14,940 nt of DNA from Candidatus Micrarchaeota archaeon. Its GTDB lineage: Archaea > Micrarchaeota > Micrarchaeia > Norongarragalinales > Norongarragalinaceae. Where the stretch lies: positions 1 to 14,940 of the forward strand of contig JBBIMI010000022.1 of the NCBI GenBank assembly GCA_037444485.1, given 5' to 3'. The position numbers were made by a program, and so were the translations under genes. Below the pieces are notes generated by a model, which had not been told where the DNA came from, made no database searches, and saw nothing but the letters and a program-made list of their open reading frames with translations. Positions 1 to 12,763 of the stretch are shown in pieces; position 1 is the first letter of the stretch; every line of letters begins with the position of its first letter.

Positions 1-561
1 TGCAGGCAAACTCGTCGCCGGCTGAAGCAAGTTGTTTGAATTAAAATAGAAAAACCCGAGAATCGCGAGCAACACTAGCGGCAAGAGCTTTAAAATAGTG
101 AGCGTGTCTTCAACGCGCGCGCCTGCCTTAATGCCGCGGTAGTTAACGTAAGTGAAAACGAAGCCCGCGAGCGCGGCAAGCGCGACACGCAAGTTCCAAT
201 CGCTTGGAATAAAGAATTGAAGGTACCACGCGAGCGCGAGTTGTTCAACCGTAATCGTAAGCCAGTAACCAAACCAAAAACTGTATCCAGTCACGAAACC
301 CCAAAAATCGCCGAGCGCAGCATGCGCGTACGAGTAAAGCCCGCCTGTTTTCGGAACTATGGCAGCGCATTCCGCAAAACAAAAACCCGCGAGAAGAGCG
401 TAAAGCCCGGCGACAACCCAAGCGAGAATCGACCACGCGCCTGCCGCTTGGGCGGCGAGCACGGGCATTATGTAAATGCCGCTGCCGACGATGAAGCCCA
501 CGCCAAGCATTACGGCGTCAAAAAACCCGAGCGCGCGCACGAAGCGAATCTTGCGAGCCAT
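1..561 (-). CDS. APC-superfamily amino acid/polyamine permease, N-terminal 187 aa (runs off the left edge)
   Basis: Not in the ORF track; translated by hand from ATG at 561: MARKIRFVRALGFFDAVMLGVGFIVGSGIYIMPVLAAQAAGAWSILAWVVAGLYALLAGFCFAECAAIVPKTGGLYSYAHAALGDFWGFVTGYSFW...VNYRGIKAGARVEDTLTILKLLPL. It has the APC TM1 G-x-x-(I/V)-G-S-G-I motif, the AE...P..GG.Y.Y motif and N.RG.K, and the frame is open to base 1. Confidence 0.93.
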   Translation of the reverse strand, partial: MARKIRFVRALGFFDAVMLGVGFIVGSGIYIMPVLAAQAAGAWSILAWVVAGLYALLAGFCFAECAAIVPKTGGLYSYAHAALGDFWGFVTGYSFWFGYWLTITVEQLALAWYLQFFIPSDWNLRVALAALAGFVFTYVNYRGIKAGARVEDTLTILKLLPLVLLAILGFFYFNSNNLLQPATSLPA

Positions 562-584
562 GAAAAACAAGAAAGCGCTACGAG

Positions 585-641: not shown

Positions 642-1589
642 TCAGAGTGTTGTGATGGGCCGGGCTTGAGTCACGTATAAAACGTTTTTTTCTACAGCCC
701 ACTCGATGTCTTGCGGGTAGCCGTAATGTTTTTCGATGCGCGCGCAGGTTTTCGCGACTTCCAAAATCAATGCGTCGTCAAGCTTTTGCTTTGCGCGTTT
801 TGCTTCCGGCACCCGCTTTTCTATAACGCCTCCGTTTGCGCCGCGCGTTATCATGATTTCTTGTTCTGAAATGTTTTTGTCGAGAACGTCGAATCTTCCG
901 TTCTTGTGTTTGTGTACGACGTAAGCGTCTGGAGTGATTTTGCCGCCGACGATGGCTTCACCCAAACCCCAGCCTGCCTCGATCACCATTTGGTCGCGGT
1001 CTTTAGTTACCGGGTTTACGGTAAACGCGATTCCTGAAACCTCGCTTTGAACCATTTTTTGGACGACGACTGCCACGAACACTTTTTGTTTGTGAAAGTT
1101 TTTTTCGAAACGGTAATAAATCGCGCGGGGCGTGAACAGGGAAGCCCAACATTTTTTGATTGACTCAAGCAAGTTTTTTCGGCGGACGTTCAAAAACGTT
1201 TCAAGCTCGCCAGCCCAACTCGCGGTTTTCGAGTCTTCGGCAGTCGCGCTGCTGCGAACCGCGACGAGCGGCGCGCCGAGTTCGTTGAATGCGGAGAAAA
1301 CTTCTGTTGCAACGTCTTTCGGAAAGCCAGTGTTTTTAATCAAGCCCCTGATTTTGATTGAAGCGCCTTCAACCGAATTAACGTCGTTGTAGTCAATCGA
1401 GTGCGTCAGCGCTTCAACTTCAGCCGCGAGGTTTGTTTCTTCAAGGAAATGCTGGAAAGCGTTTGAAAGCACTATGAATCCTGGCGGGACTGGAATTCCG
1501 GCGCGCGTCATTTCGCCGAGCGACGCGCCTTTGCCGCCTGCCTCGCGCACGTCATCCTTAGAAATTTGTTTAAAGCTTTTCACAAACAA
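642..1589 (-). CDS. Stand-alone PEP-synthase/PPDK N-terminal ATP-grasp (AMP/ATP-binding) domain protein; putative ATP subunit of a split dikinase
   Basis: Motifs GGKGASLGEM, PVPPGF, VAVRSSATAEDS..ASWAG..ETFLNV, CWASLFT.RAIYYR, VVVQKMV.SE.SG..FT.NP, IEAGWGLGEAIVGG..TPD, PQDIEWA, QARPITTL then stop. No His domain and no C-terminal TIM barrel. Start taken as TTG at 1589, after the SD-like GGTGGGGGT; the track start at 1631 is the alternative. Confidence 0.92.
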   Translation of the reverse strand: MFVKSFKQISKDDVREAGGKGASLGEMTRAGIPVPPGFIVLSNAFQHFLEETNLAAEVEALTHSIDYNDVNSVEGASIKIRGLIKNTGFPKDVATEVFSAFNELGAPLVAVRSSATAEDSKTASWAGELETFLNVRRKNLLESIKKCWASLFTPRAIYYRFEKNFHKQKVFVAVVVQKMVQSEVSGIAFTVNPVTKDRDQMVIEAGWGLGEAIVGGKITPDAYVVHKHKNGRFDVLDKNISEQEIMITRGANGGVIEKRVPEAKRAKQKLDDALILEVAKTCARIEKHYGYPQDIEWAVEKNVLYVTQARPITTL

Positions 1590-1608
1590 CTTTTTTACCC
1601 CCACCAAT

Positions 1609-1740
1609 TCTTTCTTCATTTTTTTCTTCATTCTTTTATCTTTTTCTTTATTCTTTCTTCATTTTTTTATTCTTTTATCTTTTTCTTTATTTTTTTTTCT
1701 TTTATTTTTTTCTCTTTAATTTTTTTTATTTCTTTTTTTA
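1609..1740. repeat. Low-complexity T/C-rich intergenic tract with an imperfect ~39-bp duplication
   Basis: ATTCTTTTATCTTTTTCTTTATT occurs at 1630-1652 and 1669-1691. Confidence 0.7.
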
Positions 1741-3201
1741 TTTCCGCTCCAAAATTTTTATGAAGCCAGTGCTTTTGCTTGCGTCCACCTCGACTAGGTC
1801 GCCGTCTTTAAGCGTTTTAGTCGCGTGCTTAGTGCCGATAATGCATGGTTTTTTTAACTCGCGCGCGACTATTGCCGCGTGACTCAACAACCCACCTTCG
1901 TCTGTAACGATTGCGGCTGCTTTCTCCATCGCTGGAACGTGCGTTGGCGCCGTGCTGGTAGTGACGAGGATTCTGCCGCGTTGAAAACTCTTGATGTCTT
2001 CAAGGTTACGAATTACTTTAACGCGTCCCTTCGCTCTACCAATGAACGCGGGCTGTCCCTGCAACTCGTTGATTGACGCTAACTCTCCTTGTTTTTTTAG
2101 TTCAGGCTCCAAGTATTTTTTTAAACGCTGGCCGCTTAAAACCCTTGTTTTTCCGTTAACGTAAATGAGGGCGTAGTCTTTCGCGCGCTCGTCTGCCGTG
2201 CGCGCTAGTTTTTTCGTCAAGCCGTGCTTTAACGCGTTAGTGATTTCGTTTACAGTCAAGTAAACAAGTTTTTCGTAAGGCAGTCCGATTCGCTCGCTTG
2301 CTTCCAGCATTACTGGCTTTAAAATGAAGGGAATCCTGTGGTATAACTCGTTAGCCCACATTGAAGTGAACGCGTATTCCTTGAACACGCGGATGACGCT
2401 GCGTTCTTCCGCGTTCAACTCGAATTTTTTTTCGAACTCACGCGTCTTCAAACGGTTTTCGCGGACTTGCTGGAATCCGGCAATCGTTTCCTTGATTATT
2501 CGCGTTTCGCTTTTTCGAGCCAGCGTTTTAACGCGTTCGCGGACTCTCGACTCGTCGAGTGGTTCTCCTAAGAAAACGAAGGTGGCCAAGTACCCGTAAC
2601 GCTTCGCGTACAGCTTAATCATTTTTTTTGCGCGCGCGTCGAAACCGGTTTTCTTCACGTGCAACGCGAGTTCGCCTAACTCTTTTTGTGACTTCAACAA
2701 GTCGGTCGGCTTGTTCAAGCCAGTAACGCGCGAAAGCCAGTAATTGAATTCCTGCAAGTTCGCCGCGTGTTTTGAAACCAATGCGTTCACGCGGTCAGAG
2801 TAAAAAGAGTTGAGGACGAAGTAATCGTAGCCGTAATTGTAGCATCGCGCACTCAAGTCAGCGAGTTTTAGGAAGAGCCGCGTCAACTCTTTATTCGTCA
2901 ACCTTTTTTTTCGCGCTTGTTTTACTGCTTTTTCCGCGAAAGCAAGCAAAACAAGCTTCTTCCTGCGGTAGGCTCTAGCCCATTTTATTAGCGTGCGCGG
3001 TGTAGAACGCTTCAACATTTCAACGTAGTCGCGAAAGTCTTTCTCACCCCACCACCGCGCATGCAACGCGCAGCGAAAGTTTTTAATCCTCGTTTTGCCG
3101 TCGTGCGCGCGCGTAAAAAGCTTGAAGGATCTGGCAAACAAGTCCCAGAATATGACTGGCGGCATTTGTGTTGTTTCCTTGAATTTAATCCACTGCGTCA
3201 C
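1738..3201 (-). CDS. PEP-utilizer mobile (phospho-His swivel) domain protein with large N-terminal helical domain, paralogue 4
   Basis: C-terminal AAAIVTDEGGLLSHAAIVARELKKPCIIGT..AT..LKDGDLVEVDA; N-domain motifs YAKRYGYL and IGLPYEKLVYLTVNEI. Start taken as GTG at 3201, after a strong SD GGAGGTGG (3206-3213); the track start is 3240. Confidence 0.88.
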   Translation of the reverse strand: MTQWIKFKETTQMPPVIFWDLFARSFKLFTRAHDGKTRIKNFRCALHARWWGEKDFRDYVEMLKRSTPRTLIKWARAYRRKKLVLLAFAEKAVKQARKKRLTNKELTRLFLKLADLSARCYNYGYDYFVLNSFYSDRVNALVSKHAANLQEFNYWLSRVTGLNKPTDLLKSQKELGELALHVKKTGFDARAKKMIKLYAKRYGYLATFVFLGEPLDESRVRERVKTLARKSETRIIKETIAGFQQVRENRLKTREFEKKFELNAEERSVIRVFKEYAFTSMWANELYHRIPFILKPVMLEASERIGLPYEKLVYLTVNEITNALKHGLTKKLARTADERAKDYALIYVNGKTRVLSGQRLKKYLEPELKKQGELASINELQGQPAFIGRAKGRVKVIRNLEDIKSFQRGRILVTTSTAPTHVPAMEKAAAIVTDEGGLLSHAAIVARELKKPCIIGTKHATKTLKDGDLVEVDASKSTGFIKILERK

Positions 3202-3223
3202 TAGACCACCTCCGCGTTCAAGC

Positions 3224-4675
3224 TCAAGCTTCACTTTCAACTAGTTTCCTTACTATTCCTTTCGTCGCGTCTACTTCAACCAAATCGCCGTCTTTCAGGA
3301 CGCGCGTCGCGACGCGCGTGCCGATGACGCAAGGAATGCCGAGTTCTCGTGAGACTATCGCCGCGTGGCACGTTATTCCGCCTTCGTCGGTCACGAATGC
3401 GGCTGCTTTCTTGAGCAACGGCATCATTTCAGGAGTCGTCATACTCGTGACGATGATGTCGCTTTCCTGGAACTTGCCGTAATCAGTTTTACTCAAAATT
3501 ATTTTGCAGGCTCCCCGCGCTTTCCCGGCGCAAGCAGTTTTTCCCTTCAACTCGCTTGCAGGCAAAGGCTTTTCTTCAAGCTGGCTCTGCAGCTCGTCCA
3601 CCTCGCTTCCAGTGAGAACGCAGGAGTCTTCGCCGATTTCCACGCAGGCGAAGCTGTGAATCCTGTCTTGAAGAACCTGCTTCGAGGGAATCGCGCCGTC
3701 CAACAGCTCGTAAACCGTGCAGTGCAGCAGCTCACCGTATTCGAGTCCTTTCGCTTTAGCCAGTTTCAAGAGCAAGTTTCGAATTTCGTAAAAAGTTTTG
3801 TTAATCAAATCTGTGCGGTGCGTCCTGTAGTAAACGATTTCCTGCACTACTTTAACCAAGTGCCTGTCTTTCGCGCTCAACGCGCGTTCCGCCTCCGCTA
3901 TTTTTTCAGCGTGCTTCTCGTCTTCAGCAAGCTTTTCCCGCAGCTTCTTCTCCAAATCATCGCATTTAGACAATTCATCTTCAAGCCTTTCAAGCAACTG
4001 CTGTGGAGTCCAAGCGTCCAGCGAACCGTAGCGGGTTCCGAGCCACCCGAACTCGCGCGCGTGTTCCTCCAACCTTTCCTTTACGCTCTGCGTTACGCCT
4101 TCCTTCTGCGCTTGGACAGCTATTTCGAGAAAAGCTTGCTCTTCAAGCGTGGAAAAGTTTTTCTTGAGCGGCATGGAAACCGCACCGAAGTACTCTCGCG
4201 CTCGCGCTTTGCCGAATGCTTTCTCAAGGGCTTTGCGTAGCGTGGTTTCAAGGCTGTCGAGAATGAAGAAAATGCCTATGGCGGGCGCGTAGCGCGCGTA
4301 CGCGTCGGCGAAGCGCTTGAAGTCTTCAAGCAGTTCGCTTTCGCTTGCATTGGAATACGTTTTTCGCTCTATTTCGCTGGCGATTTTCTGTAGTTCGCCG
4401 CCAGTCTGTTCAGCGCTGGAAACAAGAAGGTTGATGTACTCGGGCTCGCGCTTTAAGCGCTTCTTCAAGTATTCCGCGAATTTTACTGGGTGATATTCCG
4501 AATAATAAAAATCTCCGTTTATCATCACTCTGTCGTGAATGTGGTAGTCGACGTCGGCGAAAGACTTCCAGTATCCGCGATTCGCCATCCCGGAGAATAT
4601 GAGTGAAACGGGTAGCGGCGGGTACTCTCTGTGTACGACCTTGACTAGTTTGTCTGAAAACTTGAATTCCCTCAT
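3224..4675 (-). CDS. PEP-utilizer mobile domain protein with large N-terminal helical domain, paralogue 3
   Basis: AAAFVTDEGGITCHAAIVSRELGIPCVIGT..ATRVLKDGDLVEVDATKG; N-domain EHAREFGWLG. The ATG at 4675 lies 1 nt after the upstream TAA (4677-4679), so it is preferred over the track start at 4723. Confidence 0.9.
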   Translation of the reverse strand: MREFKFSDKLVKVVHREYPPLPVSLIFSGMANRGYWKSFADVDYHIHDRVMINGDFYYSEYHPVKFAEYLKKRLKREPEYINLLVSSAEQTGGELQKIASEIERKTYSNASESELLEDFKRFADAYARYAPAIGIFFILDSLETTLRKALEKAFGKARAREYFGAVSMPLKKNFSTLEEQAFLEIAVQAQKEGVTQSVKERLEEHAREFGWLGTRYGSLDAWTPQQLLERLEDELSKCDDLEKKLREKLAEDEKHAEKIAEAERALSAKDRHLVKVVQEIVYYRTHRTDLINKTFYEIRNLLLKLAKAKGLEYGELLHCTVYELLDGAIPSKQVLQDRIHSFACVEIGEDSCVLTGSEVDELQSQLEEKPLPASELKGKTACAGKARGACKIILSKTDYGKFQESDIIVTSMTTPEMMPLLKKAAAFVTDEGGITCHAAIVSRELGIPCVIGTRVATRVLKDGDLVEVDATKGIVRKLVESEA

Positions 4676-4676
4676 T

Positions 4677-6197
4677 TTAACTAACTGCACCTTCTGCTTC
4701 AGTTTTTTTGGTTTTGTCACCAACTTTTCTCATGATTCCCGTGCCCGCGTCTACTTCAACTAAATCGCCGTTTTTGAATATGCGCGTGGCGTTTTTCGTG
4801 CCAACGATGCACGGAATCCCCAATTCCCGCGAGACGAGTGCCGCGTGGCACGTTATTCCACCTTCGTCTGTAACAATCGCGACCGCGTTCCTCATCGCCG
4901 CCATCAACTCAGGGGTAGTCATTGGAGACACTAGCACGATGTTTTTCTCTCCAGCGTAATCATCTTGTTTGAAGACTATCTTCACGCGTCCAACGGCTTT
5001 CCCGAACGTTGCAGGAATGCCTTTAATGAATGACGCTGAAGGGGTAACGCCAACTATCTTGTCACGAAATTCTAGTGCTTTACGCCCGACGAAAACTTTG
5101 GTTGTCTTGGTTTTAGCGTTAAAGTAAAAAGCGTGGTCTAACTCGCCTAAAAGCGGTTTGATTGCTTTTCTTTTTTCTTCGATTAATTGAATTGCGTCCC
5201 AACCAGCTAGTTCGGTGCACTCGAGTTTCTTTAAACCAATTGCTTCACTGACTACTCGCAGAAAAGGACGCGTTTCGTAGTGAAAGCGGTTCAAGTTAAA
5301 CCGAATGTAGTCTTTAAAGAAAGTGAATTCGGAGAGGACGGAAAAGATTCTTGAAATGCTTTCAGGCGGATTCAATTCGTCCAGCAACGCTTTTTTTTCT
5401 TCAACCAACTTTTTCGGGTGTTCTTCAACGAGTTTAAAACGCGCGAGCGTTTTTTCCTCGTTTGAGAGCGCTTGCTTTAACTCGCTTGCGACGTAAGCCT
5501 TGCTCCACGGTTCTTCGTTATCGTAACCGCAGGGAAACCAACAATATTTTTTCAAGTGTTCGTCAACCAACGCATTCAATTCAGCGAACCGCCCGTCGTT
5601 TTCTAACAGGAACGCCGTTTCTTCAAGCGTTTTTTTCAAAAAAAGTTTCTTGAATTTTCTTGCTTTCAAAAAAATTTTTTTGAAAGACTCTTGTTCCTTC
5701 TGCAGAAAGCTTTCTTTCGCGGTTCCAGTCAGTACGCTGAACGCTTCCCTAATTTTTTTAGAGTCGCTTCCACGCATTTCGCGTTCCAGCCATTTCCTGC
5801 ATTCTTCAACGCCGGTCCTGTTAAACAAACGGATTAAGCCGACTAGAAATTCTGTGCGCTTGTAGCTAGTCCAGTATTCTTTAAAAAACTCTGGCGAGGG
5901 TTCACGCACCGCTTTTCTTCCAACTTCATGCATTGCGGAAATAAGTTTTTCTGCGTCGCTCGAATATTTTTGTGTAAAACGCGGGTCGCTTAAAACAAGT
6001 TTTTTAATGCTTTCTCCTGTCTTACGCAAGGAAGCTTCTTCGAAAAACATTGAGGCCTTATGCTTTTCTCCAAAGATCACGACGCTGGTGTCGTTGCAGT
6101 AAAACGGCGGGTGGCCCTCGACGTAAGTAGCGAAAAAAGCGGAAGTATAGAATGGAGCGCATCGCCTTTCCCAATCGTAATCCCACTTGCCAGCCAT
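4677..6197 (-). CDS. PEP-utilizer mobile domain protein with large N-terminal helical domain, paralogue 2
   Basis: AVAIVTDEGGITCHAALVSRELGIPCIVGTKNATRIFKNGDLVEVDA; N-domain EHLKKYCWFPCGY. The ATG directly abuts the upstream TGA (TGAATG). Confidence 0.9.
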   Translation of the reverse strand: MAGKWDYDWERRCAPFYTSAFFATYVEGHPPFYCNDTSVVIFGEKHKASMFFEEASLRKTGESIKKLVLSDPRFTQKYSSDAEKLISAMHEVGRKAVREPSPEFFKEYWTSYKRTEFLVGLIRLFNRTGVEECRKWLEREMRGSDSKKIREAFSVLTGTAKESFLQKEQESFKKIFLKARKFKKLFLKKTLEETAFLLENDGRFAELNALVDEHLKKYCWFPCGYDNEEPWSKAYVASELKQALSNEEKTLARFKLVEEHPKKLVEEKKALLDELNPPESISRIFSVLSEFTFFKDYIRFNLNRFHYETRPFLRVVSEAIGLKKLECTELAGWDAIQLIEEKRKAIKPLLGELDHAFYFNAKTKTTKVFVGRKALEFRDKIVGVTPSASFIKGIPATFGKAVGRVKIVFKQDDYAGEKNIVLVSPMTTPELMAAMRNAVAIVTDEGGITCHAALVSRELGIPCIVGTKNATRIFKNGDLVEVDAGTGIMRKVGDKTKKTEAEGAVS

Positions 6198-7877
6198 TCA
6201 CAACCGCCTCACTATTCCTTTCGTCGCGTCTACCTCCACCAAATCGCCGTCTTTCAGGACTAGAGTTGCGTGCTTAGTGCCGATAATGCATGGTTTTTTT
6301 AACTCGCGCGCGACTATTGCCGCGTGGCACGTTATTCCACCTTCGTCCGTAATTATGGCCGCGGCTTTCTTCATTGCAGGCAGCAAGTCAGGGTTGGTTG
6401 CAGGCGACACGAGCACGTCGCCCTCACGCATTTTAGTTACGTCTTCAACGCGAACAACGATTTTCACTGCGCCCTTCGCTGTTCCAACGCGCGCAGGCAT
6501 TCCCTTCAATTCCTTCACGTCAGTTTTGAAACCCTCGTCACTCTCGCCGCTTGTCACGCGCGACGACAACAACCGCGCTTGCCTTCCAGTGAAAACAGTG
6601 ACTTCGCCGCCTTCGAAAAACCAGCAACTCTGTTTTACGCGTTCTTCAAGTTTCCGCGCGTTCGGCTTCAGCGTTCCTTCAAGCGCTTTCACGATTTCGT
6701 AGAGCGTCAAGTGTCTGGCTTGCGTTAGAGTTAAACCCAAGCGCGACGCGATTTCCTTAACCAACCCTTCACTCCAGCAACTCGCTTTAAACACCGCGTC
6801 CTTGCGCGCTGCCTTCAAGAACATGAACGTGCGCGCGACGCGAATCCAGTGTTTTTCTTCAGCATTCAAGCCAAGTTTTTTTTCAAACCGCGCTTGCTTT
6901 TCCGCTAGTTCGCGTTTCTTGTTTTCTAGTTCTTCAAGCTTTTTCTTGCCGCTTGTTTTCCGCTCGAGTTCAGACTTCAAGAGTTTAACAAAATGCGCTT
7001 CGTCAAGCACAGTCGGCCCGTCGTAACCGTACTGAAGCCAACCGTATTCGCGTGCGTGCTCGCTGACTGGTTCGCGAACGCCGGGCAGCGTTACGAATTT
7101 TCTTAAAACCTTGTTTCCCGGGTTGCTGAAAACCTTTAACGCGAGCGGGCTTTCTTGAATCAAGGCAAGCAATTCGTAAAAATCTTCTTCATGCCTCGCA
7201 ATCGAACTTTTTTCGAGGGGTGTGGTTAAAACAGTGAAGGCTTCAGCAACGCTCGCGCTTGAACTTGTTCCGCGTATTCTTTTTTCTAACAAATCATTGA
7301 TTTTGTTTGAAAGCATGAAGTGTTCAAAGTCAGCCAAGTTCACGACGTGGCCCAAAACGTTAGCTTCCACCCAAACGTCGTAAAGCATTTGAAACTCGCG
7401 CAACAGTTCTTCGTTAGAGCATGCTTGCAGTTTTCGTCTCTGCGTCTCGCCACGCAACGCTTCAGCTTTTTCTTCTAGTTTTTTAATGGACTCTCGGCTG
7501 TTGCGTTCAACTAACTCGAAAAAGTTTTTACTCTGCAAGCGTTTCAACGCGATTACGCCGGCTTTATTAAAGCTTTCATCGGCATAAAATCTAGAGTTTT
7601 GGTTTTCGAACACCAGCATCATTGAATGCGTGTTCAACCCTTCAACTCCAAGCACTGCAAGCACTTCGTTCGAGGTCGCTGCTTGACAGTATGCTGCGGG
7701 ATGCATTAACGGGCTTGCAGGGTTTACTGCAACAACCTTCCACGCTTTACTCAAGGCTTTACTCAAGGCTTTACTCAACCCAGCCTTTTTTTCAGTCGTT
7801 TCTTCAGTCGTTTTCGTTCCCTCCAACACTCTTTTTTTCTTTCCTTTTTTTCTTTCCTCGTTTTCTCTGGGTTTCAA
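6198..7877 (-). CDS. PEP-utilizer mobile domain protein with large N-terminal helical domain, paralogue 1
   Basis: AAAIITDEGGITCHAAIVARELKKPCIIGTKHATLVLKDGDLVEVDATKG; N-domain EHAREYGWLQYGY. The start is uncertain because the first ~45 codons are low-complexity and repeat-containing. Confidence 0.88.
   Translation of the reverse strand: MKPRENEERKKGKKKRVLEGTKTTEETTEKKAGLSKALSKALSKAWKVVAVNPASPLMHPAAYCQAATSNEVLAVLGVEGLNTHSMMLVFENQNSRFYADESFNKAGVIALKRLQSKNFFELVERNSRESIKKLEEKAEALRGETQRRKLQACSNEELLREFQMLYDVWVEANVLGHVVNLADFEHFMLSNKINDLLEKRIRGTSSSASVAEAFTVLTTPLEKSSIARHEEDFYELLALIQESPLALKVFSNPGNKVLRKFVTLPGVREPVSEHAREYGWLQYGYDGPTVLDEAHFVKLLKSELERKTSGKKKLEELENKKRELAEKQARFEKKLGLNAEEKHWIRVARTFMFLKAARKDAVFKASCWSEGLVKEIASRLGLTLTQARHLTLYEIVKALEGTLKPNARKLEERVKQSCWFFEGGEVTVFTGRQARLLSSRVTSGESDEGFKTDVKELKGMPARVGTAKGAVKIVVRVEDVTKMREGDVLVSPATNPDLLPAMKKAAAIITDEGGITCHAAIVARELKKPCIIGTKHATLVLKDGDLVEVDATKGIVRRL
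7744..7814. repeat. In-frame 12-bp tandem repeats: (GCTTTACTCAAG)x3 encoding LSKA x3, and a 12-bp x2 encoding TTEE/TTEK
   Basis: Units at 7744-7755, 7756-7767 and 7768-7779; TTCAGTCGTTT at 7791 and 7803. Confidence 0.85.
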
Positions 7878-7880
7878 GCG

Positions 7881-8093
7881 TTAAACGATTTTAAGCGACT
7901 TCAACCACTTCGTGAAGTCAAGCGCTTCCGCGAATTTCGCTACTTTTGCTTGGCTTTTATACAAAACAAGCGCGATTATCAACAGCGCGACCAGCGTCGC
8001 TTCGTCAGCCCGTGCAAGAAACCAAAACACCGCATTCCGCAAGTCGTCTATAGCCAAGAAAGCCAGCACGACGAGAACGTCTAATCCCTTCAA
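7881..8093 (-). CDS. Small hydrophobic (membrane) hypothetical protein, 70 aa
   Basis: Hydrophobic stretches VLVVLAFLAI and TLVALLIIALVLY. It fills the gap on the operon strand and its stop lies 3 nt from the next start; TTG start. Confidence 0.6.
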   Translation of the reverse strand: MKGLDVLVVLAFLAIDDLRNAVFWFLARADEATLVALLIIALVLYKSQAKVAKFAEALDFTKWLKSLKIV

Positions 8094-8157
8094 TTCAAAA
8101 ACCCTTTATCTTCAAAAACCTTGCTCGAATCGTCGAATTTGTTGCTTATTTGTTCAC

Positions 8158-8604
8158 TTAATTGCCTTTAGGCGCTGGCGCGCTTGCAATCCGTTGTTCA
8201 ACGCTAACGTCTTCAATCGGCAACAAGATTGGACGCATTTCAAACTCTTGCCAGTTCGAGTACGCTGCGCCTGAACGCCACCAGTAGTACACTGCTGCCA
8301 TCGTCGCGAGCATTCCGCCGTAAACGAACGCAACGCCTCCAACGCCAGTCGCTACTTGAACAACGCAGTAAACCGCTACAGCAGCGCTGACGAACGCCTT
8401 CGCCACCGCCTCGTAAGTCTTTTTCAAAACGTATTGATACTCGCCAATTATTTCCGCCTTCGTCTTCACGATCTCGTAATTGTGTTTGCGTAAGTGCTCT
8501 GGAGACGACTTGTCGCCAACGGGAATGGGACTTCCTAAGCGTGAAAAGCCGGGCGCGAAAGTGCGCAGAAAACCGTCAGGCGAGCCAGGCGTATAAACCC
8601 TCAT
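8158..8604 (-). CDS. Hypothetical two-TM membrane protein, 148 aa; paralogue of 8662-9087
   Basis: ATG preceded by duplicated GGTGA SD; hydrophobic hairpin AFVSAAVAVYCVVQVATGVGGVAFVYGGMLATMAAVYYWW; shares motifs with the neighbouring ORF. Confidence 0.8.
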   Translation of the reverse strand: MRVYTPGSPDGFLRTFAPGFSRLGSPIPVGDKSSPEHLRKHNYEIVKTKAEIIGEYQYVLKKTYEAVAKAFVSAAVAVYCVVQVATGVGGVAFVYGGMLATMAAVYYWWRSGAAYSNWQEFEMRPILLPIEDVSVEQRIASAPAPKGN

Positions 8605-8661
8605 TTTTTTTCACCTTTTTTCACCTTTTCTTTTTTTCGTTTCATTTTTTCAGTGTTTGTT

Positions 8662-9087
8662 TTACATCATTCCTTGCCCTTCATTCAACACGTAAGCGTT
8701 GTGCGTGAGCATGCGCACCGGGTCGTGCTCGTAATCACTCCAGTCGCCGGCATACCCACCCCAAGCAGCAGTCCAATAACGCATGACGAGCCCTGAAAGC
8801 AGGATTGCTGCAAGCGCGTAAGTCGGGTCGAAACTCTGCATGAACAAGCTTAAAAAGTAGAGTACCGCGACGCCGAAAACAGCTGAAATGCTGGCGTTCA
8901 AAATCGTTTTCTTCATAGTTTTATTATACTTGTCGACTAGTTCAGCGCGCGTGCCGATGCGCCACAAGTTATCCATGTTGAGGCGGCTCATGCCTGCAGC
9001 GTTGTTTTTACGCTTGAATTCAGGAGCTGGCGGCATCCACTTCCATACGCCGAAACCCGTTTTTCTCAACGCTTCCTCAAACCACAT
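8662..9087 (-). CDS. Hypothetical two-TM membrane protein, 141 aa; paralogue of 8158-8604
   Basis: ATG at 9087 follows GAGTGGTG-TAAAA (the track start 9126 lies just beyond the duplicated SD); hydrophobic hairpin ILNASISAVFGVAVLYFLSLF...YALAAILLSGLVMRYW. Confidence 0.8.
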   Translation of the reverse strand: MWFEEALRKTGFGVWKWMPPAPEFKRKNNAAGMSRLNMDNLWRIGTRAELVDKYNKTMKKTILNASISAVFGVAVLYFLSLFMQSFDPTYALAAILLSGLVMRYWTAAWGGYAGDWSDYEHDPVRMLTHNAYVLNEGQGMM

Positions 9088-9121
9088 TTTTACACCACTC
9101 GAAATTTTACACCACTCGAAA
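9088..9121. repeat. Perfect 17-bp tandem duplication containing the SD of the first operon gene
   Basis: TTTTACACCACTCGAAA at 9088-9104 and 9105-9121. Confidence 0.9.
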
Positions 9122-9355
9122 TTCACGCTGCTCTAAAAAACCCAGAATCCTGGAGCTTCACCGAAGCCCCAACCACTACTCAACCTCAATCTCCAACGCT
9201 ACTAAAACCAAAAATCAACCAAAAATCAAAAACTTAACTCGACCCCCCAAAAAACTTAACCAACCAAAATGCTGCCAATATCACCACAAACTCGTTTTAA
9301 CTTTCGTTTTAACTCCTTTGTAGTAACATTTATCAGAAAAGGGCGATATATTAGT

Positions 9356-9379
9356 TTGTTATAATACTTATTATAACAA
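9356..9379. promoter_or_regulatory. Palindromic operator 1 (candidate TrmB-family binding site)
   Basis: TTGTTATAATA-CT-TATTATAACAA, perfect 11-bp arms, in the AT-rich divergent intergenic region. Confidence 0.7.
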
Positions 9380-9405
9380 GGATATTGAAAGTAAATGGGA
9401 TTAAA

Positions 9406-9415
9406 TTTATTAATA
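9406..9415 (+). promoter_or_regulatory. Candidate TATA box between the two operators
   Basis: TTTATTAATA immediately abutting operator 2; its direction cannot be established from sequence alone. Confidence 0.35.
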
Positions 9416-9437
9416 TGTTATAACCTTCGTTATAACA
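9416..9437. promoter_or_regulatory. Palindromic operator 2 (candidate TrmB-family binding site)
   Basis: TGTTATAAC-CTTC-GTTATAACA, perfect 9-bp arms; same 22-bp geometry as operator 1 (9357-9378). Confidence 0.7.
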
Positions 9438-9463
9438 GAATTATTCACTAACTACTGTCTTGT

Positions 9464-9576
9464 TTGTTGGGTTTTGTTTGTTTTTTTGTTTGTGGGTTGC
9501 GTTGTTGGGTTTTGTTTGTTTTTTTTTGTTTGGGGTTGCGTTGTTGGGTTTTGTTTGTTTTTTTTTTGTTTGTGCG
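9464..9576. repeat. Three ~38-bp G/T-rich tandem repeats upstream of trmB
   Basis: TTGTTGGGTTTTGTTTG-T(7/9/10)-GTTTG... units start at 9464, 9502 and 9541. Confidence 0.85.
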
Positions 9577-9588
9577 GGGTGAGTGTTG

Positions 9589-10410
9589 ATGGCCGTAAAA
9601 AAATTAAGGGAAGAGGCAGGGAGGGAGGGAAAGCTCGAGTTTGTTCAGCCTTTCAGCGCGCTCGAGGTTTTGCGGGAATTGGGTTTGACGGACAATGAAG
9701 CGAAAACGTTTCAAGCAATGTGCGCGCTTGGGCCGGCGAGCGCCAGCGAAATCGCGGAGAAAGCGGGAGTGCACCGCGCGCTTGCTTACAACACGCTCGC
9801 GCGGCTGGTAGAGAAGGGCTTCGTCAGTCAAATCGTTCAAGACAAGAAAAAATTGTTTCACGCAGTGACGCCGGAGCACTTGTGGTCGTTGTACGAAGAG
9901 CGGGAAAAGCGGTTGAGCGCCGGACTTGAAGAGCTCACGAAAAGACTCGAGGACGTTTACCGCGTAAGCGAAAAACCGACTGCAGAGATTTTCACTGGCT
10001 TGGATGGAGTAAAAGCAATTCTTTCTGAAGAATTAGTGAGCGTCAAGCCAGGCGGCGAGATTCTTTATTACCGCACTCAACCCGACATCGCGTTAGCGTT
10101 GCCAGTATTCGTTTCCTGGTACCACAAGCAACGCGCGAAAAAAGGAATTCGCGCGAAAGCGATTTTCGACAGTTCGCCTGCAGCGTTAAAACGCGCGCGA
10201 GAATTCCAAAAGCTTTCCTTGACTGAAGTCAGGGTTTTAGTAGAAGAATTGCCTTCACCGATTTCTTACCACGTTTGCGGCGACGCGTTAGCGATTCTTT
10301 CCTTCGCTGGAAAAAACAGCCTTGGAATCTTTATTAAAAGCAAGGAAATTTCGTCTTTCTTCCGCCACAACTTCAACTTTGCTTGGAGCAAGCTCAAGCC
10401 TTATCAATAA
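9589..10410 (+). CDS. TrmB-family transcriptional regulator (N-terminal wHTH plus C-terminal effector-type domain)
   Basis: LRELGLTDNEAKTF..M..LGPASASEIAEKAGVHRALAYNTLARLVEKGFVS......KKLFHAVTPE is a typical TrmB HTH; it is followed by EIFTGLDGVKAIL and R.KKGIRAKAI. SD GGGGTGA lies upstream of ATG 9589 (track start 9583). Confidence 0.9.
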   Translation: MAVKKLREEAGREGKLEFVQPFSALEVLRELGLTDNEAKTFQAMCALGPASASEIAEKAGVHRALAYNTLARLVEKGFVSQIVQDKKKLFHAVTPEHLWSLYEEREKRLSAGLEELTKRLEDVYRVSEKPTAEIFTGLDGVKAILSEELVSVKPGGEILYYRTQPDIALALPVFVSWYHKQRAKKGIRAKAIFDSSPAALKRAREFQKLSLTEVRVLVEELPSPISYHVCGDALAILSFAGKNSLGIFIKSKEISSFFRHNFNFAWSKLKPYQ

Positions 10411-10426
10411 ATTTTATCAATAAATT
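10401..10426. repeat. 13-bp tandem duplication spanning the trmB stop codon
   Basis: TTATCAATAAATT x2. Confidence 0.8.
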
Positions 10427-10466
10427 CAATAACCGCTTTTTTTAAAGGCGTTTGACAAAATAATGT

Positions 10467-11768
10467 TTGGTGAGCGGGTTGGCTGGACGGCCGATTGCGT
10501 CAAAATACACAAAATACAAGTTGTTGAGAAAATACGGTTTGAACCGAATCAAGGCCGTGCTCTTAGCCACGCGAAGAGACTTCAAACCCGAATTGTACTT
10601 CAACCCCGATTTGTTAAAAATCGTAAAAAACCTGGAAGAAGTCGAAAAACACAAGAAAAAACCAGAATACGAGAAAGAACTCGAAAAACACAAGAAAAAA
10701 CTTGAAGAGTACGAAAACACGCTTGCGGAAAAGACAGACAATGATTTAAAAAAATTTCTCGCGGCCGGCCATTCCCACCACGATTTCTTCTTCAAGACGA
10801 AGCCGACAATTGAAGAATTTTTTAACTTGCTCGTCCTGGGCGAGGGACTCCCGCCTGGTGAAGCGGTATACGAATCGCTGGTATGCCAAAACGCGTCGAA
10901 ATACTTGAAGAAATACGGGCTTCAAGGCGTCACCCGGTTTTCGCTTGGAAACTGGGCTTCATGGAAAGCGAAACGCATTGCGGAAATCCTCTTCAACCGC
11001 GATTTGAATCGCGAGAATAATAATGAAGAAAAAAAACGAATGGTAATCGATGACCTTAAGAATGCTTTCGACAACGCCGTCTCGAAAGGTGAAGCGCCGC
11101 AAATCGAGCTTAAAATATTTTGGGGCGGACACAAGGAAAAAGAACCCGGAACCGCGGACGAGGAAGACGAAAGATTGCTTGACCGACTAAAGGGAGTCGC
11201 AGATTCGCTGCAAAAAATGGGCGTCGACGCCAGGGTAAAACTAATTTTTTCTGACCTGCATTCTGAGAAAATCAACGACGTCGAACGCGAGAGAATCAAC
11301 AAGTATTTTGACAGCCTTAAACCACTCGCGGAAAAACGCGGGTTCGGCGTGGAATTATTGAGCAACTTGTGGAACGAACACAACCCGTTCAAAAAATGGT
11401 TTAAAGAACCAGCGCCTGGAGAAAAACCAGCGCTTGGAGAAAAACCACTAGAGAGTATGGATGCTCTAGGCTTCACCGCCAAAACGCTCAACATCCTAGA
11501 AAAAATGGGGATTATTGAAAAAAGCGTTATAGCAGCGGCGAGGCACTCGCAGGAAGTCGCGAAGGGAAAAGAAAGCGCTTTCGAATCAAGTGAAAAGTAT
11601 CACGCGCTCATGCTTGTGGAAAAATTCATGTTCGAGCGGCTCAGGGAACAGGGAACTTTCTTTATCTCTCTATCCAACCCGCGCTCGAGCGCGCTGTACA
11701 AGCCGCAGTACACGCTTTATTTTTGGTCTAAAAAACGCGGAACTGGAAAATCGCCGTGGTTTAAATGA
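10467..11768 (+). CDS. Hypothetical protein; C-terminal ~270 aa resembles the PvcA/Dit1/IsnA isonitrile synthase fold
   Basis: Long ORF. Motif order ELKIFWGGHKE..ADEEDERLLDRL..ARVKLIFSDLH..V.RERINKY..L..FISLSNP..SPWF parallels my recollection of PvcA (F.LPAFP.KS..PD.AE..L..L..A.I...SDG..I.AY..L..RLSIHP..TPWH). Possible start TTG 10479 after GGTGA; TTTAAA TATA-like box at 10441-10446. Confidence 0.55.
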   Translation: MVSGLAGRPIASKYTKYKLLRKYGLNRIKAVLLATRRDFKPELYFNPDLLKIVKNLEEVEKHKKKPEYEKELEKHKKKLEEYENTLAEKTDNDLKKFLAAGHSHHDFFFKTKPTIEEFFNLLVLGEGLPPGEAVYESLVCQNASKYLKKYGLQGVTRFSLGNWASWKAKRIAEILFNRDLNRENNNEEKKRMVIDDLKNAFDNAVSKGEAPQIELKIFWGGHKEKEPGTADEEDERLLDRLKGVADSLQKMGVDARVKLIFSDLHSEKINDVERERINKYFDSLKPLAEKRGFGVELLSNLWNEHNPFKKWFKEPAPGEKPALGEKPLESMDALGFTAKTLNILEKMGIIEKSVIAAARHSQEVAKGKESAFESSEKYHALMLVEKFMFERLREQGTFFISLSNPRSSALYKPQYTLYFWSKKRGTGKSPWFK

Positions 11769-12703
11769 AAACACCTATCTGGAGCAAAGCATGGAGTAAA
11801 CTAAAGTTGAAACTAGAGGAACGCCGGTTAAAGAAAGCAGAGGAAGTCAAGCAAAGCAAGCTGGAGCAGTTGGAGCGCTTGAAGGAAAGCGTGACTGGCT
11901 CGAAAGTGCTCGGCCCGCCAGACAAACGGTTTTTGTACGCGAAAATAACTGGCGTCGCGCTCGCGTTGCTTCTCGCCGCCGGGATTACGCGGGAAGTAGT
12001 GATGCGGTACAACCGCTTGATGGTGGAACGATACGAAGCAGAGCGAGCGAAAGTGTTGTCTATCTTCGAGGAGCAGATGAGAACACGCATGGCTGCCTTG
12101 CGCAAGGCTGGAGTTAAAGACGCGGAATTTTGGGCGGAAATGATGGCTAGAAGCCAGTACTGGAACGAAAAGTTTCCTTCCCTCCCCAAATTTTCTTTAG
12201 AGGATTACGTTGAACTCGAAAAATGGTTTGGAAACGACAAGTATGCGGTAAGGACGTTGCTGCCGGTATTCAAGCACGCGAAAACTTTTTTGAATAATCC
12301 GACTAGAGAAGACCTCGAGCGAGAACGAGAATTGCTTAAACAAAAATTTGAAGAATTCCGCGAGAACGAGGTCGCTGAAAAACCTTTTGACTATATTTTA
12401 ATTGACAGATCTTTATTGAAAGCGGAAAAAGCGCTTAAATACTTGATTGAAAACAACGACAACCCGAAAGTCAGGAAACTACTCGAAAAATTGGCGGAGT
12501 ATTCAAGATTCAATCAATCTCCGTTTGATGTCGATTACACTAGCGACGCCAACCCAAACTTGTTTAAAAAAATTTATTTAGGCGAAAAACCAGTAAAACT
12601 AGAATTCAAGGTCGACCAACAACTCGTCGACAACCTGAAAATAGAATTAAAGAGTTTGAAAGAAAAACACGAACAACTTAAAAACAAGCAAGAAAAACAA
12701 TAA
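11765..12703 (+). CDS. Hypothetical membrane-anchored, coiled-coil-rich protein, 312 aa
   Basis: ATGA overlap with the upstream stop; a single hydrophobic segment ITGVALALLLAAGIT; E/K/L-rich helical remainder; no recognisable family motif. Confidence 0.75.
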   Translation: MKTPIWSKAWSKLKLKLEERRLKKAEEVKQSKLEQLERLKESVTGSKVLGPPDKRFLYAKITGVALALLLAAGITREVVMRYNRLMVERYEAERAKVLSIFEEQMRTRMAALRKAGVKDAEFWAEMMARSQYWNEKFPSLPKFSLEDYVELEKWFGNDKYAVRTLLPVFKHAKTFLNNPTREDLERERELLKQKFEEFRENEVAEKPFDYILIDRSLLKAEKALKYLIENNDNPKVRKLLEKLAEYSRFNQSPFDVDYTSDANPNLFKKIYLGEKPVKLEFKVDQQLVDNLKIELKSLKEKHEQLKNKQEKQ

Positions 12704-12763
12704 GCAAGAAAAACAACAAAAACAAAAAAAACAATAAGCAAGAAAAACAACAAAAACAAAAAA
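12693..12763. repeat. 34-bp A-rich tandem duplication spanning the stop codon of 11765-12703
   Basis: CAATAAGCAAGAAAAACAACAAAAACAAAAAA twice (TAA at 12701 and 12735). Confidence 0.8.

Follow-up and report, generated by a model that had tools for sequence, protein, structure and literature searches.

A candidate one-to-many, two-component dikinase of the rifampin phosphotransferase type in a Micrarchaeota archaeon

Introduction

The closest described counterparts of the genes considered here are the characterised two-component dikinases HpeHI of Rhodococcus, CreHI of Corynebacterium and PpsAB of Thauera and Aromatoleum (PMC12167813). As described in that source, these systems keep an ATP-grasp subunit apart from an acceptor subunit in which a substrate domain like that of rifampin phosphotransferase (RPH) is joined to a C-terminal swivel domain with the phosphorylated histidine; one ATP subunit is provided for one acceptor subunit, the substrates are phenolic and the pathways catabolic, and the acceptor subunits PpsA, HpeH and CreH are ~45% identical to one another (PMC12167813). 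RPH itself, represented by RPH-Lm (PDB 5FBS, 5FBT, 5FBU, 5HV1), consists of one chain that has a single substrate domain. PEP synthase and pyruvate phosphate dikinase combine ATP-grasp and swivel domains with a PEP/pyruvate TIM barrel. Finally, Enzyme I of the PTS, which is charged by PEP via a TIM barrel and passes the phosphate to the protein HPr, has a phosphohistidine swivel domain and offers a parallel in concept, in that one phosphoryl source supplies many specific downstream branches.

Here, we analyze a window of 14,940 nucleotides from a Candidatus Micrarchaeota archaeon (contig JBBIMI010000022.1). Like HpeHI, CreHI and PpsAB, it encodes an ATP-grasp subunit that is separate from the substrate and swivel domains, and its acceptor paralogues share with those systems the catalytic motif T/SxxGGxxxH (PMC12167813). 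Unlike them, it sets one ATP subunit next to four acceptor subunits, and the genome has a fifth at another place; split dikinases as such are already known from that source, and it is the one-to-many layout that differs. No description of a one-to-many array of such genes was found in the literature.

Results and Discussion

Organization of the locus

Four packed paralogues, designated A to D, lie on the minus strand and are followed, beyond a 106-nt repeat spacer, by a single PPDK_N-only gene (Table 1). An earlier note on this DNA, made from the sequence alone, had described these five genes as they are found, including the junctions TGAATG and TAA-A-ATG, which occur at D/C and C/B, and the intact catalytic histidine motif of all four paralogues. 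The repeat spacer, which may be the site of a separate promoter, weighs against taking co-transcription of the array and PPDK_N as given. The open frames cover 1738-3240 (A), 3224-4723 (B), 4677-6197 (C) and 6198-7877 (D). The C/B junction places the start of B at 4675 (483 aa), in agreement with the database call; if A starts at GTG 3234 (498 aa), which also matches the database call, it overlaps B by 11 nt. Three short tandem repeats are located at 7744-7866, with the first ~41 codons of the D frame (7755-7877) inside them, and the relatives of D align only from residue ~44; hence D probably starts at TTG 7754 and would be somewhat shorter than first described, with 7755-7877 as spacer.

Table 1. 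Features of the window, in order of their coordinates
Feature	Coordinates	Strand	Details
APC-family amino-acid permease fragment, cut by window end	1..570	(-)	PF13520 E 8e-26; downstream of PPDK_N
PPDK_N-only gene, proposed ATP-binding "charger"	642..1631	(-)	329 aa; PF01326 E 1.3e-104
A-rich degenerate tandem-repeat spacer between A and PPDK_N	1632..1737		periods ~20 and ~39 over 1607-1743
Acceptor/phospho-His subunit A	1738..3234	(-)	498 aa; PF00391 at 419-489; variant active-site motif
Acceptor/phospho-His subunit B	3224..4675	(-)	483 aa; PF00391; widespread ~440-aa type
Acceptor/phospho-His subunit C	4677..6197	(-)	506 aa; PF00391 at 417-487
Acceptor/phospho-His subunit D (probable start)	6198..7754	(-)	~518 aa; PF00391; open frame to 7877
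S70, conserved hydrophobic protein just upstream of D	7881..8093	(-)	70 aa; no Pfam family
SM1, small predicted membrane protein	8158..8604	(-)	148 aa; no Pfam/NCBIfam family
SM2, small predicted membrane protein	8662..9126	(-)	154 aa
TrmB-family regulator, divergent from the SM2-SM1-S70-array operon	9583..10410	(+)	PF01978 E 2.6e-17

The gene set extends beyond the four paralogues first noted: a fifth, E (515 aa), is located on contig C1, unlinked to the window cluster, a position that counts against a one-to-many reading. As the earlier note had stated, the TIM barrel (PF02896) is absent from all five window genes in a Pfam profile search, and the genome has no stand-alone barrel gene, which the earlier note had named as a sign of ordinary PEP synthase activity; its sole barrel belongs to a separate, complete PEP synthase of 817 aa on contig C18 (PPDK_N, PEP-utilizers and PEP-utilizers_C), so the absence holds for the window and not for the genome. 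Together, the system's six genes occupy roughly 0.9% of the 0.96 Mb genome.

The acceptor subunits

Each of A-D has a divergent N-domain of ~370-410 aa and a C-terminal swivel domain, and in A-E PF00391, at the C-terminus, is the only domain matched (E 1e-24 to 4e-27 in A-D). The swivel motif T(D/E)(E/Q)GG..(C/S)HAA..(S/A)REL is present with its catalytic histidine in all five, A-D having the form TDEGG(I/L)(T/L)(C/S)H and E the form TEQGGVTCH, and the histidine is kept in 206 of 208 proteins of the acceptor family. Among the five paralogues the swivel domains are 49-69% identical and the N-domains 19-28%; such strong conservation of the swivel relative to the N-domain is the pattern that would be expected for a shared docking partner. 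The swivel domains are also 47-60% identical to that of the genome's own PEP synthase.

Confident AF2 models (pLDDT 94.8 for A, 95.1 for B) find their best structural match in RPH-Lm, at a sequence identity of only 16-18%. Model A aligns with 5fbt over 431 residues (Z 20.0, rmsd 4.8; model 4-496, RPH 323-867) and model B with 5fbt (VIA) over 406 (Z 19.0, rmsd 5.3; model 8-479, RPH 328-867), and the top Foldseek match of B is 5fbu (E 2.3e-15). Since the N-domains alone reach Z 15.5 (B) and 15.3 (A) against RPH-Lm, the kinship with the RPH substrate domain that the earlier note had proposed is borne out: as modelled, A and B have the rifampin-binding fold. The N-domains of A-E are mutually homologous by BLASTP (C against A, B, D and E: E 0.03 to 2e-9), and it is by homology to A and B that C, D and E are assigned an RPH-type N-domain.

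The RPH residues used for residue matching were those given in PMC4844700. The position of R666 is occupied by R or K in 150 of the 208 acceptor proteins and that of K670 in 182. In B the motif YYR284-T-H-R287-TD aligns with RPH Y-R666-E667-Y-P-K670, and B, D (LKAARKD) and E have a basic residue at both positions; C (FKDYIR) has K at the first and R one position late; the position of Glu667 is occupied by T, D, A or F. A, with TSMWAN, lacks the equivalents of both Arg666 and Lys670, and that the paralogue nearest PPDK_N should have neither phosphate-site basic residue counts against the dikinase reading. The closest relative of A in the set, a Portnoybacteria record (37% N-domain identity, clade support 0.996), has TSLWAD. 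No support was seen for rifamycins as substrates.

Phylogenetically, A groups with the Portnoybacteria protein and with proteins of Doudnabacteria (support 1.0), E shares a clade with proteins of Falkowbacteria and Magasanikbacteria (support 1.0) and D in a five-member clade (support 0.996). Cluster representatives related to the N-domain of D number 1,193 at E<=1e-3; B has >5,500 database relatives, typically ~440 aa, under names that include Nanoarchaeota, Woesearchaeota and Patescibacteria; a C-type protein is a neighbour in the array of a related genome, G019 (L094, phmmer E 2e-106). The nearest neighbour of any of A-E is never another of A-E, and each window paralogue has relatives in other genomes, some of them bacterial, that are closer than those in its own. 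This topology points to five subfamilies that are old and differ in their active-site motifs; for that reason, each probably has a different acceptor.

The ATP-grasp subunit and its relation to known families

In the PPDK_N-only gene, PF01326 spans residues 30-328 of 329 and no other domain is present. Its K34, R126 and T145 align with RPH Lys22, Arg117 and Thr136, and structure alignment matches it to the RPH ATP-grasp domain, its best structural match, and also to 9goj (387 aa), whose deposited name is PEP synthase. With 18 stand-alone PPDK_N proteins from relatives and from CPR/DPANN arrays, bacterial and archaeal, it shares 46-61% identity, which again fits the pattern expected for a shared docking partner, and is 42% identical to the ATP-grasp domain in the PEP synthase of its own genome.

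Neither the PEP synthase nor the RPH family takes in these genes. In the sequence of their ATP-grasp and swivel domains the window genes stand near PEP synthase and pyruvate phosphate dikinase. The best NCBIfam matches of PPDK_N are PEP synthase models, against which the window genes score 95-360 bits at cut-offs of 598-740. The RPH model NF041857 gives 287 bits for PPDK_N and 47-75 bits for the paralogues (cut-off 999). The ~600-aa PRK08296-type models ("hypothetical protein"), which we take to be linked to PpsA and use as a proxy for kinship to it, match only the last ~110 residues of the paralogues, with 67-94 bits against cut-offs of at least 578. The window acceptors are 483-518 aa long, compared with the 71 kDa of HpeH, and no carboxylase or aromatic pathway genes were found near the array. 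The comparison with the PRK08296-type models suggests that the paralogues are a different subfamily of the HpeHI/CreHI/PpsAB kind.

Proposed mechanism

With an RPH-type fold and conserved ATP-site residues, the locus is best read as a split RPH-type dikinase similar to HpeHI, CreHI and PpsAB, and the reading that we favor, with moderate confidence, is a one-to-many, two-component dikinase for small molecules. The observed domain content, folds, catalytic residues and motifs, gene order and context, copy numbers and natural fusions bear out the core of the earlier note, one ATP subunit for several acceptor subunits; from them we infer charging in trans by the single ATP-grasp protein, the release of AMP + Pi, small molecules as acceptors and distinct specificities. 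By analogy with HpeHI, CreHI and PpsAB the chemistry would be that of a dikinase. The stand-alone ATP-grasp protein (642-1631) would bind ATP, and the swivel domain of any one of A-D, or of the unlinked E, would dock on it; the conserved histidine would then take the beta-phosphate, leaving AMP + Pi, after which the swivel domain would swing back to its own rifampin-binding-domain-like N-domain and transfer the phosphate to the small molecule held there. In principle, the genome's PEP synthase could also charge the paralogues, given the resemblance of its ATP-grasp and swivel domains.

Distribution and the one-to-one alternative

The layout, for which the earlier note knew of no characterised parallel, is widespread. 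The 41 related genomes (0.7-1.6 Mb) have 1-17 swivel genes each, compared with six in the source genome, and arrays in CPR bacteria and DPANN archaea reach about ten acceptor genes; with copy number so variable and five paralogues here, the earlier suggestion that four subunits could match four bases falls. A complete stand-alone PPDK_N occurs in 10 of the 41 genomes and at most once per genome (G023 has an additional 184-aa fragment); it is present in 9 of the 17 genomes with at least five swivel genes and in none of the 16 with two or fewer. In seven of nine relatives' loci around a stand-alone PPDK_N the acceptor genes are on the same strand, and in 13 of 74 CPR/DPANN loci PPDK_N lies inside or beside the array. 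Natural fusions, up to 2,967 residues long, include single ORFs in which one PPDK_N is joined to 5, 5 and 6 swivel modules (L025, L055 and L059) or to 2 (L042, L045, L070), and RPH-like one-module fusions followed on the same strand by further acceptor-only genes (L033, L060, L080).

These data bear on an alternative that we regard as unlikely, namely that PPDK_N works with one partner only, perhaps A, which is adjacent, or any neighbouring gene, and that the others are charged by the ATP-grasp domain of PEP synthase or, as transphosphorylases, by phosphorylated small molecules. Such one-to-one pairing would agree with the unlinked position of E, with the resemblance of the paralogue swivels to that of PEP synthase, and with the description of HpeH alone moving phosphate from 4-phosphoacetophenone to acetovanillone, by which acceptor subunits need not always depend on ATP (PMC12167813). 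It would likewise agree with the absence of a stand-alone PPDK_N from 7 of the 17 relatives with at least five swivel genes (G007, G009, G012, G014, G019, G022 and G029; 71-89% complete), a result that a protein query at E<=1 did not change for five of the seven. However, the array runs up to the end of its contig in each of the three genomes of genus g6 that were examined, so the missing gene cannot count there as a true absence. One-to-one pairing is also difficult to reconcile with ORFs that combine one PPDK_N with 5-6 modules, with a single PPDK_N flanked by many acceptor genes on one strand, or with the confinement of stand-alone PPDK_N to genomes with at least three swivel genes; in G025, moreover, an E-type protein (48% identity) is encoded directly upstream of PPDK_N (locus L015).

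Membrane genes, regulators and the remaining alternatives

Upstream of D are S70, with hydrophobic segments, and SM1, with one TM-like stretch (both Kyte-Doolittle); SM1 and SM2 are distant paralogues (22% identity, E 1e-5), and SM2 gave no usable ESM-Atlas match. Of the 13 relatives' loci scanned, 10 have a relative of S70. SM1 is found in 14 of the 41 related genomes, G000 included, and in 8 of the 14 loci, from six genera, it is directly upstream of acceptor genes, as part of an SM2-SM1-S70 trio with a divergent TrmB gene ahead of the array; in six of these eight cassettes a D-type protein follows the trio. This arrangement hints that the function is regulated and linked to the membrane or uptake. 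The permease, which the earlier note had mentioned in naming amino acids as candidate acceptors, is indeed adjacent to PPDK_N, but the scan of relatives' loci showed no permease beside that gene, which makes its membership in the system doubtful.

A more far-reaching extension of the favored one-to-many dikinase, which we put forward as speculation and think quite unlikely, is that ultra-small symbionts might have in the array the soluble half of a capture system that resembles the PTS but is driven by ATP. Its phospho-His modules, substrate-specific and changeable, would be charged by one ATP-grasp "Enzyme I analogue", and in Micrarchaeota a D-type module would work with the membrane trio, under a TrmB-type regulator, to trap or detoxify many different host-derived molecules by phosphorylating them on entry. 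If true, group translocation or metabolite capture would have a third general design, and the presence of up to 17 swivel genes in such small genomes would be accounted for.

It is improbable, in our judgment, that the system is instead a phosphorelay to proteins, as in PTS Enzyme I, with SM1, SM2, S70 or neighbouring HTH regulators as targets in signaling or transport-coupled phosphorylation. The swivel domain is that of Enzyme I (Z 14-16 to its N-terminal domains), the trio with TrmB precedes the array in the eight loci above, and HTH_10 regulators are interspersed with arrays in six Micrarchaeota-order loci. The Enzyme I models match only the swivel region, at ~33-48 bits against cut-offs of 342-824, and neither the barrel nor the HPr-binding subdomain was seen in the window genes. 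Yet the rifampin-binding fold, in which most members keep basic residues at the phosphate site, agrees with a buried site for a small molecule; the SM pair has no acceptor gene directly downstream in 6 of the 14 loci (downstream DNA covered in five); the trio is absent among the CPR array neighbours scanned; and regulators are ordinary beside catabolic operons.

PEP synthase is thought to make ATP from AMP + Pi in some Thermococcales, and the system could conceivably run in this direction too, energy-rich phosphorylated metabolites of the host passing phosphate by way of the swivel histidine to the ATP-grasp subunit. The location of CPR arrays beside an acylphosphatase (L076), a phosphate acetyl/butyryl transferase (L053) and a carbamoyltransferase (L038) is circumstantial evidence for such reverse operation, which we nonetheless hold to be very improbable. 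Few metabolites carry phosphate of PEP-like energy, a scarcity hard to square with 5-17 modules per genome, and the phosphatases that recur near arrays (His_Phos_1, HD and HAD, in four loci each) better fit pathways that phosphorylate and then dephosphorylate. That the paralogues are redundant or decaying duplicates without distinct functions is hardly credible, for although tandem duplication commonly leads to pseudogenes and the N-domains are so dissimilar, there are five open frames with intact catalytic motifs, confident structure models, and relatives in other genomes, some of them bacterial, that are closer and keep the subfamily motifs.

Significance

Most metabolic pathways have been lost in CPR bacteria and DPANN archaea, which are ultra-small organisms. 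A family that is kept at such a genomic cost, is common to both domains and is sometimes fused into single chains likely matters for life on hosts. If one ATP subunit does charge many substrate-specific partners, many compounds could be phosphorylated in a modular fashion, and the two-component dikinases that were recently characterised would gain an extension. The proteins are also a defined set for screening against metabolite or antibiotic libraries. It also calls for caution with the automatic label "phenylphosphate synthase", and hence "phenol degradation", which DPANN metagenome studies may attach to such genes (PMC8091004).

Layout of the Locus

The window corresponds to contig C22 in a genome (G000) of 0.96 Mb in 58 contigs, 95% complete, which has archaeal-type genes such as those for EF-1-alpha and ribosomal protein S10. 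Each of its four paralogues A to D has as its sole Pfam domain the phospho-histidine swivel PF00391 (over the final ~72 residues, E 1e-24 to 4e-27), and the sole Pfam domain of the 329-aa stand-alone ATP-grasp protein (PPDK_N) is PF01326 (E 1.3e-104). The junctions are as first read, TGAATG at D/C and TAA-A-ATG at C/B; the B and A frames share 11 nt, with the start of A as called in the database, and an A-rich degenerate tandem repeat of 106 nt lies between A and PPDK_N. Because three short tandem repeats (7744-7866) cover some 41 first codons of the D frame, and relatives of D align only from residue ~44, the start of D is probably the TTG at 7754. One spacer repeat (LSKA x3) inflates the apparent N-terminus of D; short locus-specific tandem repeats fill spacers at 1607-1743, 7744-7866, 9464-9574, 12680-12763 and 14792-14940. 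The neighbouring APC permease, whose adjacency the earlier note points out, is rejected as a partner: in the relatives, the scanned ORFs next to PPDK_N include no permease.

Predicted features of the window
Feature	Position	Strand	Remarks
SM2 (small protein)	8662-9126	-	first in transcription order
SM1 (small protein)	8158-8604	-	after SM2
S70 (70-aa ORF)	7881-8093	-	after SM1
Paralogue D	6198-7877 (as open frame)	-	PF00391
Paralogue C	4677-6197	-	PF00391
Paralogue B	3224-4675	-	PF00391
Paralogue A	1738-3234	-	PF00391
PPDK_N-only gene, 329 aa	642-1631	-	PF01326
APC permease	1-570	-	start only; 3' of PPDK_N
TrmB-family regulator	9583-10410	+	divergent; opposite to the SM2-to-PPDK_N genes
433-aa ORF	10467-11768	+	downstream of TrmB
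312-aa ORF	11765-12703	+	downstream of TrmB

A Probable Split Dikinase of the Rifampin Phosphotransferase Type

We conclude that the window, together with a fifth paralogue elsewhere in the genome, constitutes a real and intact split dikinase system of the rifampin phosphotransferase (RPH) type, in which by predicted function one ATP-grasp protein serves five acceptor proteins, each an N-domain followed by a swivel. The earlier count of one to four fits the four paralogues of the window and fails as a total, since paralogue E (515 aa, with TEQGG replacing TDEGG) is encoded on contig C1 and makes five in G000. Across the whole assembly the swivel domain occurs six times, PPDK_N twice and a PEP-utilizers_C barrel once. 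This sole barrel is part of a complete three-domain PEP synthase of 817 aa encoded on contig C18, so that there is no orphan barrel gene, of the kind the earlier note had asked after, from which PEP synthase could be rebuilt with these parts.

The structural evidence agrees with the suggestion that the N-domains are related to the substrate domain of RPH. The AlphaFold model of B (97 sequences, pLDDT 95.1) gave Listeria RPH as all of its top six Foldseek matches (best E 2.3e-15, TM 0.60), and it superimposes on RPH by VIA-align with Z 19.0 and rmsd 5.3 over 406 residues (model 8-479, RPH 328-867); for A (pLDDT 94.8) the values are Z 20.0 and rmsd 4.8 over 431 residues (model 4-496, RPH 323-867). 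The N-domains alone likewise match RPH, with Z 15.5 for B (model 1-364, RPH 318-741) and 15.3 for A, and along this domain C, D and E are 19-28% identical to A and B (BLASTP E 0.07 down to 8e-18). PPDK_N for its part aligns end to end with RPH's ATP-grasp domain (E 2e-61) and matches 9goj, a 387-aa chain deposited as a phosphoenolpyruvate synthase, at E 1e-54. In the alignment its K34, R126 and T145 occupy the positions of RPH Lys22, Arg117 and Thr136, residues tied to the nucleotide phosphates (PMC4844700).

The acceptor side was assessed by aligning 208 acceptor proteins of one module each, the five of G000 and 203 encoded in fetched loci. The catalytic histidine is kept in 206 of them. The region of RPH R666, E667 and K670 holds the transferred phosphate (PMC4844700), and the B-family profile aligns YYR-T-H-R-TD with Y-R666-E667-Y-P-K670 of RPH; an R or K stands at the R666 position in 150/208 proteins and at that of K670 in 182/208. 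Both positions are basic in B, D and E, while C has K at the first and an R shifted one position past the second. A reads TSMWAN at the phosphate site, with no basic residue, and this counts against the one-to-many reading, in which a single PPDK_N charges several partners; but because its closest relative in the set, a Portnoybacteria record, keeps TSLWAD, A is best seen, from its sequence, as a conserved variant type and not a decayed copy. Prediction of a PPDK_N-B complex, run without controls, scored 0.23-0.24 against a mark of 0.32.

Two-component dikinases of this build (HpeHI, CreHI and PpsAB) have been characterised (PMC12167813), and RPH is the fused form of such enzymes (PMC4844700). 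The window proteins have fold and residues in common with these but probably not close sequence kinship, and they match the ~600-aa PRK08296-type models of NCBIfam over the swivel region only, far below cut-off. One metagenome study reports "phenylphosphate synthase" genes in DPANN genomes in which the carboxylase is missing (PMC8091004). Full-text searches, largely outside the subscription journals, turned up neither an account of one-to-many arrays nor one of this family in CPR or DPANN.

An apparent fusion of PF00391 with UDP-GlcNAc 2-epimerase (PF02350) was rejected as a cross-hit, the match overlying the swivel itself both in locus L065 and in the PEP synthase of G000. These weak Epimerase_2 matches are at L008:91-2544 (own PEP synthase) and L065:2077-5397; since they overlie the swivel, the precomputed "PF00391 + PF02350" database architectures may likewise be cross-hits and not fusions.

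One ATP-Grasp Gene, Many Acceptor Modules

The one-to-many split dikinase is a widespread variant of the characterised two-component kind and, as the genome comparison indicates, a feature of the lineage not confined to the window. Counted over 41 genomes of the order, with G000 among them, matches to the swivel domain number 1-17 per genome, with at least five in 17 genomes and 13-17 in each of G007, G010, G016, G017, G029, G031, G037 and G038; the idea of four subunits for four bases is rejected, the copy number being five here and 1-17 in relatives. A frame of PEP synthase size (727-933 aa) with PPDK_N and swivel occurs in 36 of the 41 genomes. Such frames end at contig edges in G006, G008 and G011, and the scan of the 41 genomes found none of this type in G002 and G016. 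In G007 the frame has 1,454 aa (C77:1885-4713), with PPDK_N in two pieces ~1.5 kb apart and then the swivel, and may be an intein-containing PEP synthase.

Stand-alone PPDK_N, counted as a frame of at most 441 aa (in G037 232 aa, cut by a contig end), occurs in 10/41 genomes and at most once in each, G023 having an additional 184-aa fragment. Its presence by swivel count is 9/17 at five or more, 1/8 at three or four and 0/16 at two or fewer. Fragments cut by contig ends occur in four more genomes. Around the stand-alone gene in nine relatives, seven loci have one to four same-strand acceptor genes; the other two are a 1.6-kb contig and a locus without an acceptor gene in the 7.4 kb available. 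The cut PPDK_N in L010 was confirmed.

Against the one-to-many reading, stand-alone PPDK_N went undetected in seven of the 17 genomes with at least five swivel genes (bins 71-89% complete), and in five of these seven the sole find of a protein query at E<=1 was the domain of the PEP synthase, at 47-50% identity. In the three genomes of genus g6 compared, the array breaks off with its contig on the flank that in the window has PPDK_N, so that neither absence nor presence of the gene is proven. The repeat spacer between array and PPDK_N, and the position of E, unlinked to the array, also count against this reading. Of the sequencing runs listed for this DNA none is of RNA; one DNA run contains it and may be its source.

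That one ATP-grasp domain would serve several modules is argued most strongly, on the comparative side, by natural fusions, found in metagenome bins in which occasional mis-assembly is possible. A pattern scan outside the order, with one genome per species, gave at least 737 encoding stretches, of which 74 loci were kept; their titles are bacterial (Paceibacteria, Falkowbacteria, Saccharibacteria, Magasanikbacteria and other Patescibacteria) and archaeal (Nanoarchaeia, Woesearchaeota, Pacearchaeota and Micrarchaeota). This survey of CPR and DPANN neighbourhoods, which the earlier note had proposed, revealed at least two swivel-only ORFs in 49/74 loci and at least four in 27/74, with up to ~10 on one strand in arrays such as those of L078, L084, L024 and L069. 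Stand-alone PPDK_N is present in 13/74 loci, and an ORF fusing PPDK_N to swivel modules in 9/74. By Pfam, one PPDK_N is joined to five swivels in L025 (2,374 aa, 811-7935) and L055 (2,711 aa, 4154-12289), to six in L059 (2,967 aa, 6159-15062), and to two in L042, L045 and L070; in L025 it is C-terminal, in L055 and L059 N-terminal. Fusions of RPH-like build with a single module (683-801 aa; L033, L060, L080) are followed by same-strand acceptor-only genes. The giant ORFs (L025, L055, L059, L064) have 2,374-2,967 aa and five or six acceptor modules each; in that of L064 (2-7741), whose 5' end is open, no PPDK_N was seen.

Divergence of the Paralogues

Within G000 the N-domains are 19-28% identical and the swivels 49-69%, the pattern expected if all swivels dock on one partner. 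The paralogues are, by tree and identities, old and distinct. In a FastTree phylogeny of the 208 proteins no member of A-E is the nearest neighbour of another; the clades around A, D and E are supported at 0.996-1.0, those of A and E with bacterial and archaeal records intermixed. The N-domain of A is 37% identical to a Portnoybacteria protein, and that of D 41%, 38.5% and 37% to archaeal proteins. The E N-domain reaches 48% with the gene that lies immediately upstream of PPDK_N in G025, and 37% with a protein from Magasanikbacteria. B, compared whole, is 70%, 47% and 44% identical to database proteins, and the N-domain of C reaches at best 28% within a limited comparison set. A word-indexed search with the A N-domain returned three proteins, a method-limited number that is not a measure of rarity. 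PPDK_N shares 46-61% identity with its stand-alone counterparts in relatives and in CPR/DPANN arrays, against 42% with the PEP synthase of G000.

Conserved Cassette and Gene Neighbours

Relatives of SM1 occur in 14/41 genomes. Comparison of 14 loci with the SM pair, the window among them, showed one layout in eight: TrmB, transcribed divergently, is followed by SM2-SM1, in most cases by S70, and next by same-strand acceptor genes; these eight span six genera (G000, G031, G019, G024, G027, G012, G006, G014). A D-type gene leads the acceptor genes in 6/8, and the array of G019 reads D, E, C. In the other six of the 14 no acceptor gene was found directly downstream of the pair. Each of SM1, SM2 and S70 has a TM-like hydrophobic stretch; SM1 and SM2 matched no Pfam or NCBIfam family, S70 no Pfam family, and SM2 gave no usable ESM Atlas match. 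The 433- and 312-aa ORFs also matched neither Pfam nor NCBIfam. The former lies beside TrmB again in four loci from relatives (L011, L097, L098, L102) and in the ESM Atlas falls near clusters of PF05141 (DIT1_PvcA, isonitrile synthase family; score 0.93, low recognition, 1661), a kinship without Pfam confirmation that is a lead only. HTH_10-type DNA-binding proteins of ~215-245 aa lie among the acceptor genes of Micrarchaeota-order arrays in L010 (three), L013, L014, L015, L016 and L089, which suggests gene-by-gene regulation of the arrays.

Outside the order, 106 same-strand neighbour ORFs from the 74 loci include phosphatase types (His_Phos_1 in four loci, HD in four, HAD in two, and singly an LMW phosphatase and an acylphosphatase), Fic in three loci, and nucleotidyltransferase (in one locus with HEPN alongside) or PemK toxin-antitoxin-type genes in four. 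The recurrent phosphatases hint, by analogy with the Hpe pathway (PMC12167813), at a phosphorylate-then-dephosphorylate chemistry. In other loci of the Micrarchaeota order, HAD hydrolases, a Fic protein or a histidine-utilisation operon adjoin the paralogues. Fic/DOC genes lie in or beside arrays at L011:3123-4010 (Micrarchaeota order, between acceptor gene and PPDK_N), L039:2251-3243, L043:3297-3698 and L078:932-2017, the titles of the last three being two "bacterium"/Patescibacteria and one uncultured Gammaproteobacteria. An acceptor paralogue of 475-478 aa, of a type absent from G000, stands immediately upstream of the genes for histidine ammonia-lyase and urocanase in L013 (12319-15397) and L016 (9918-14976), which come from one genus (g2) and count as one observation; in L013 genes for an Amidohydro_1 amidohydrolase and a formiminotransferase come next.
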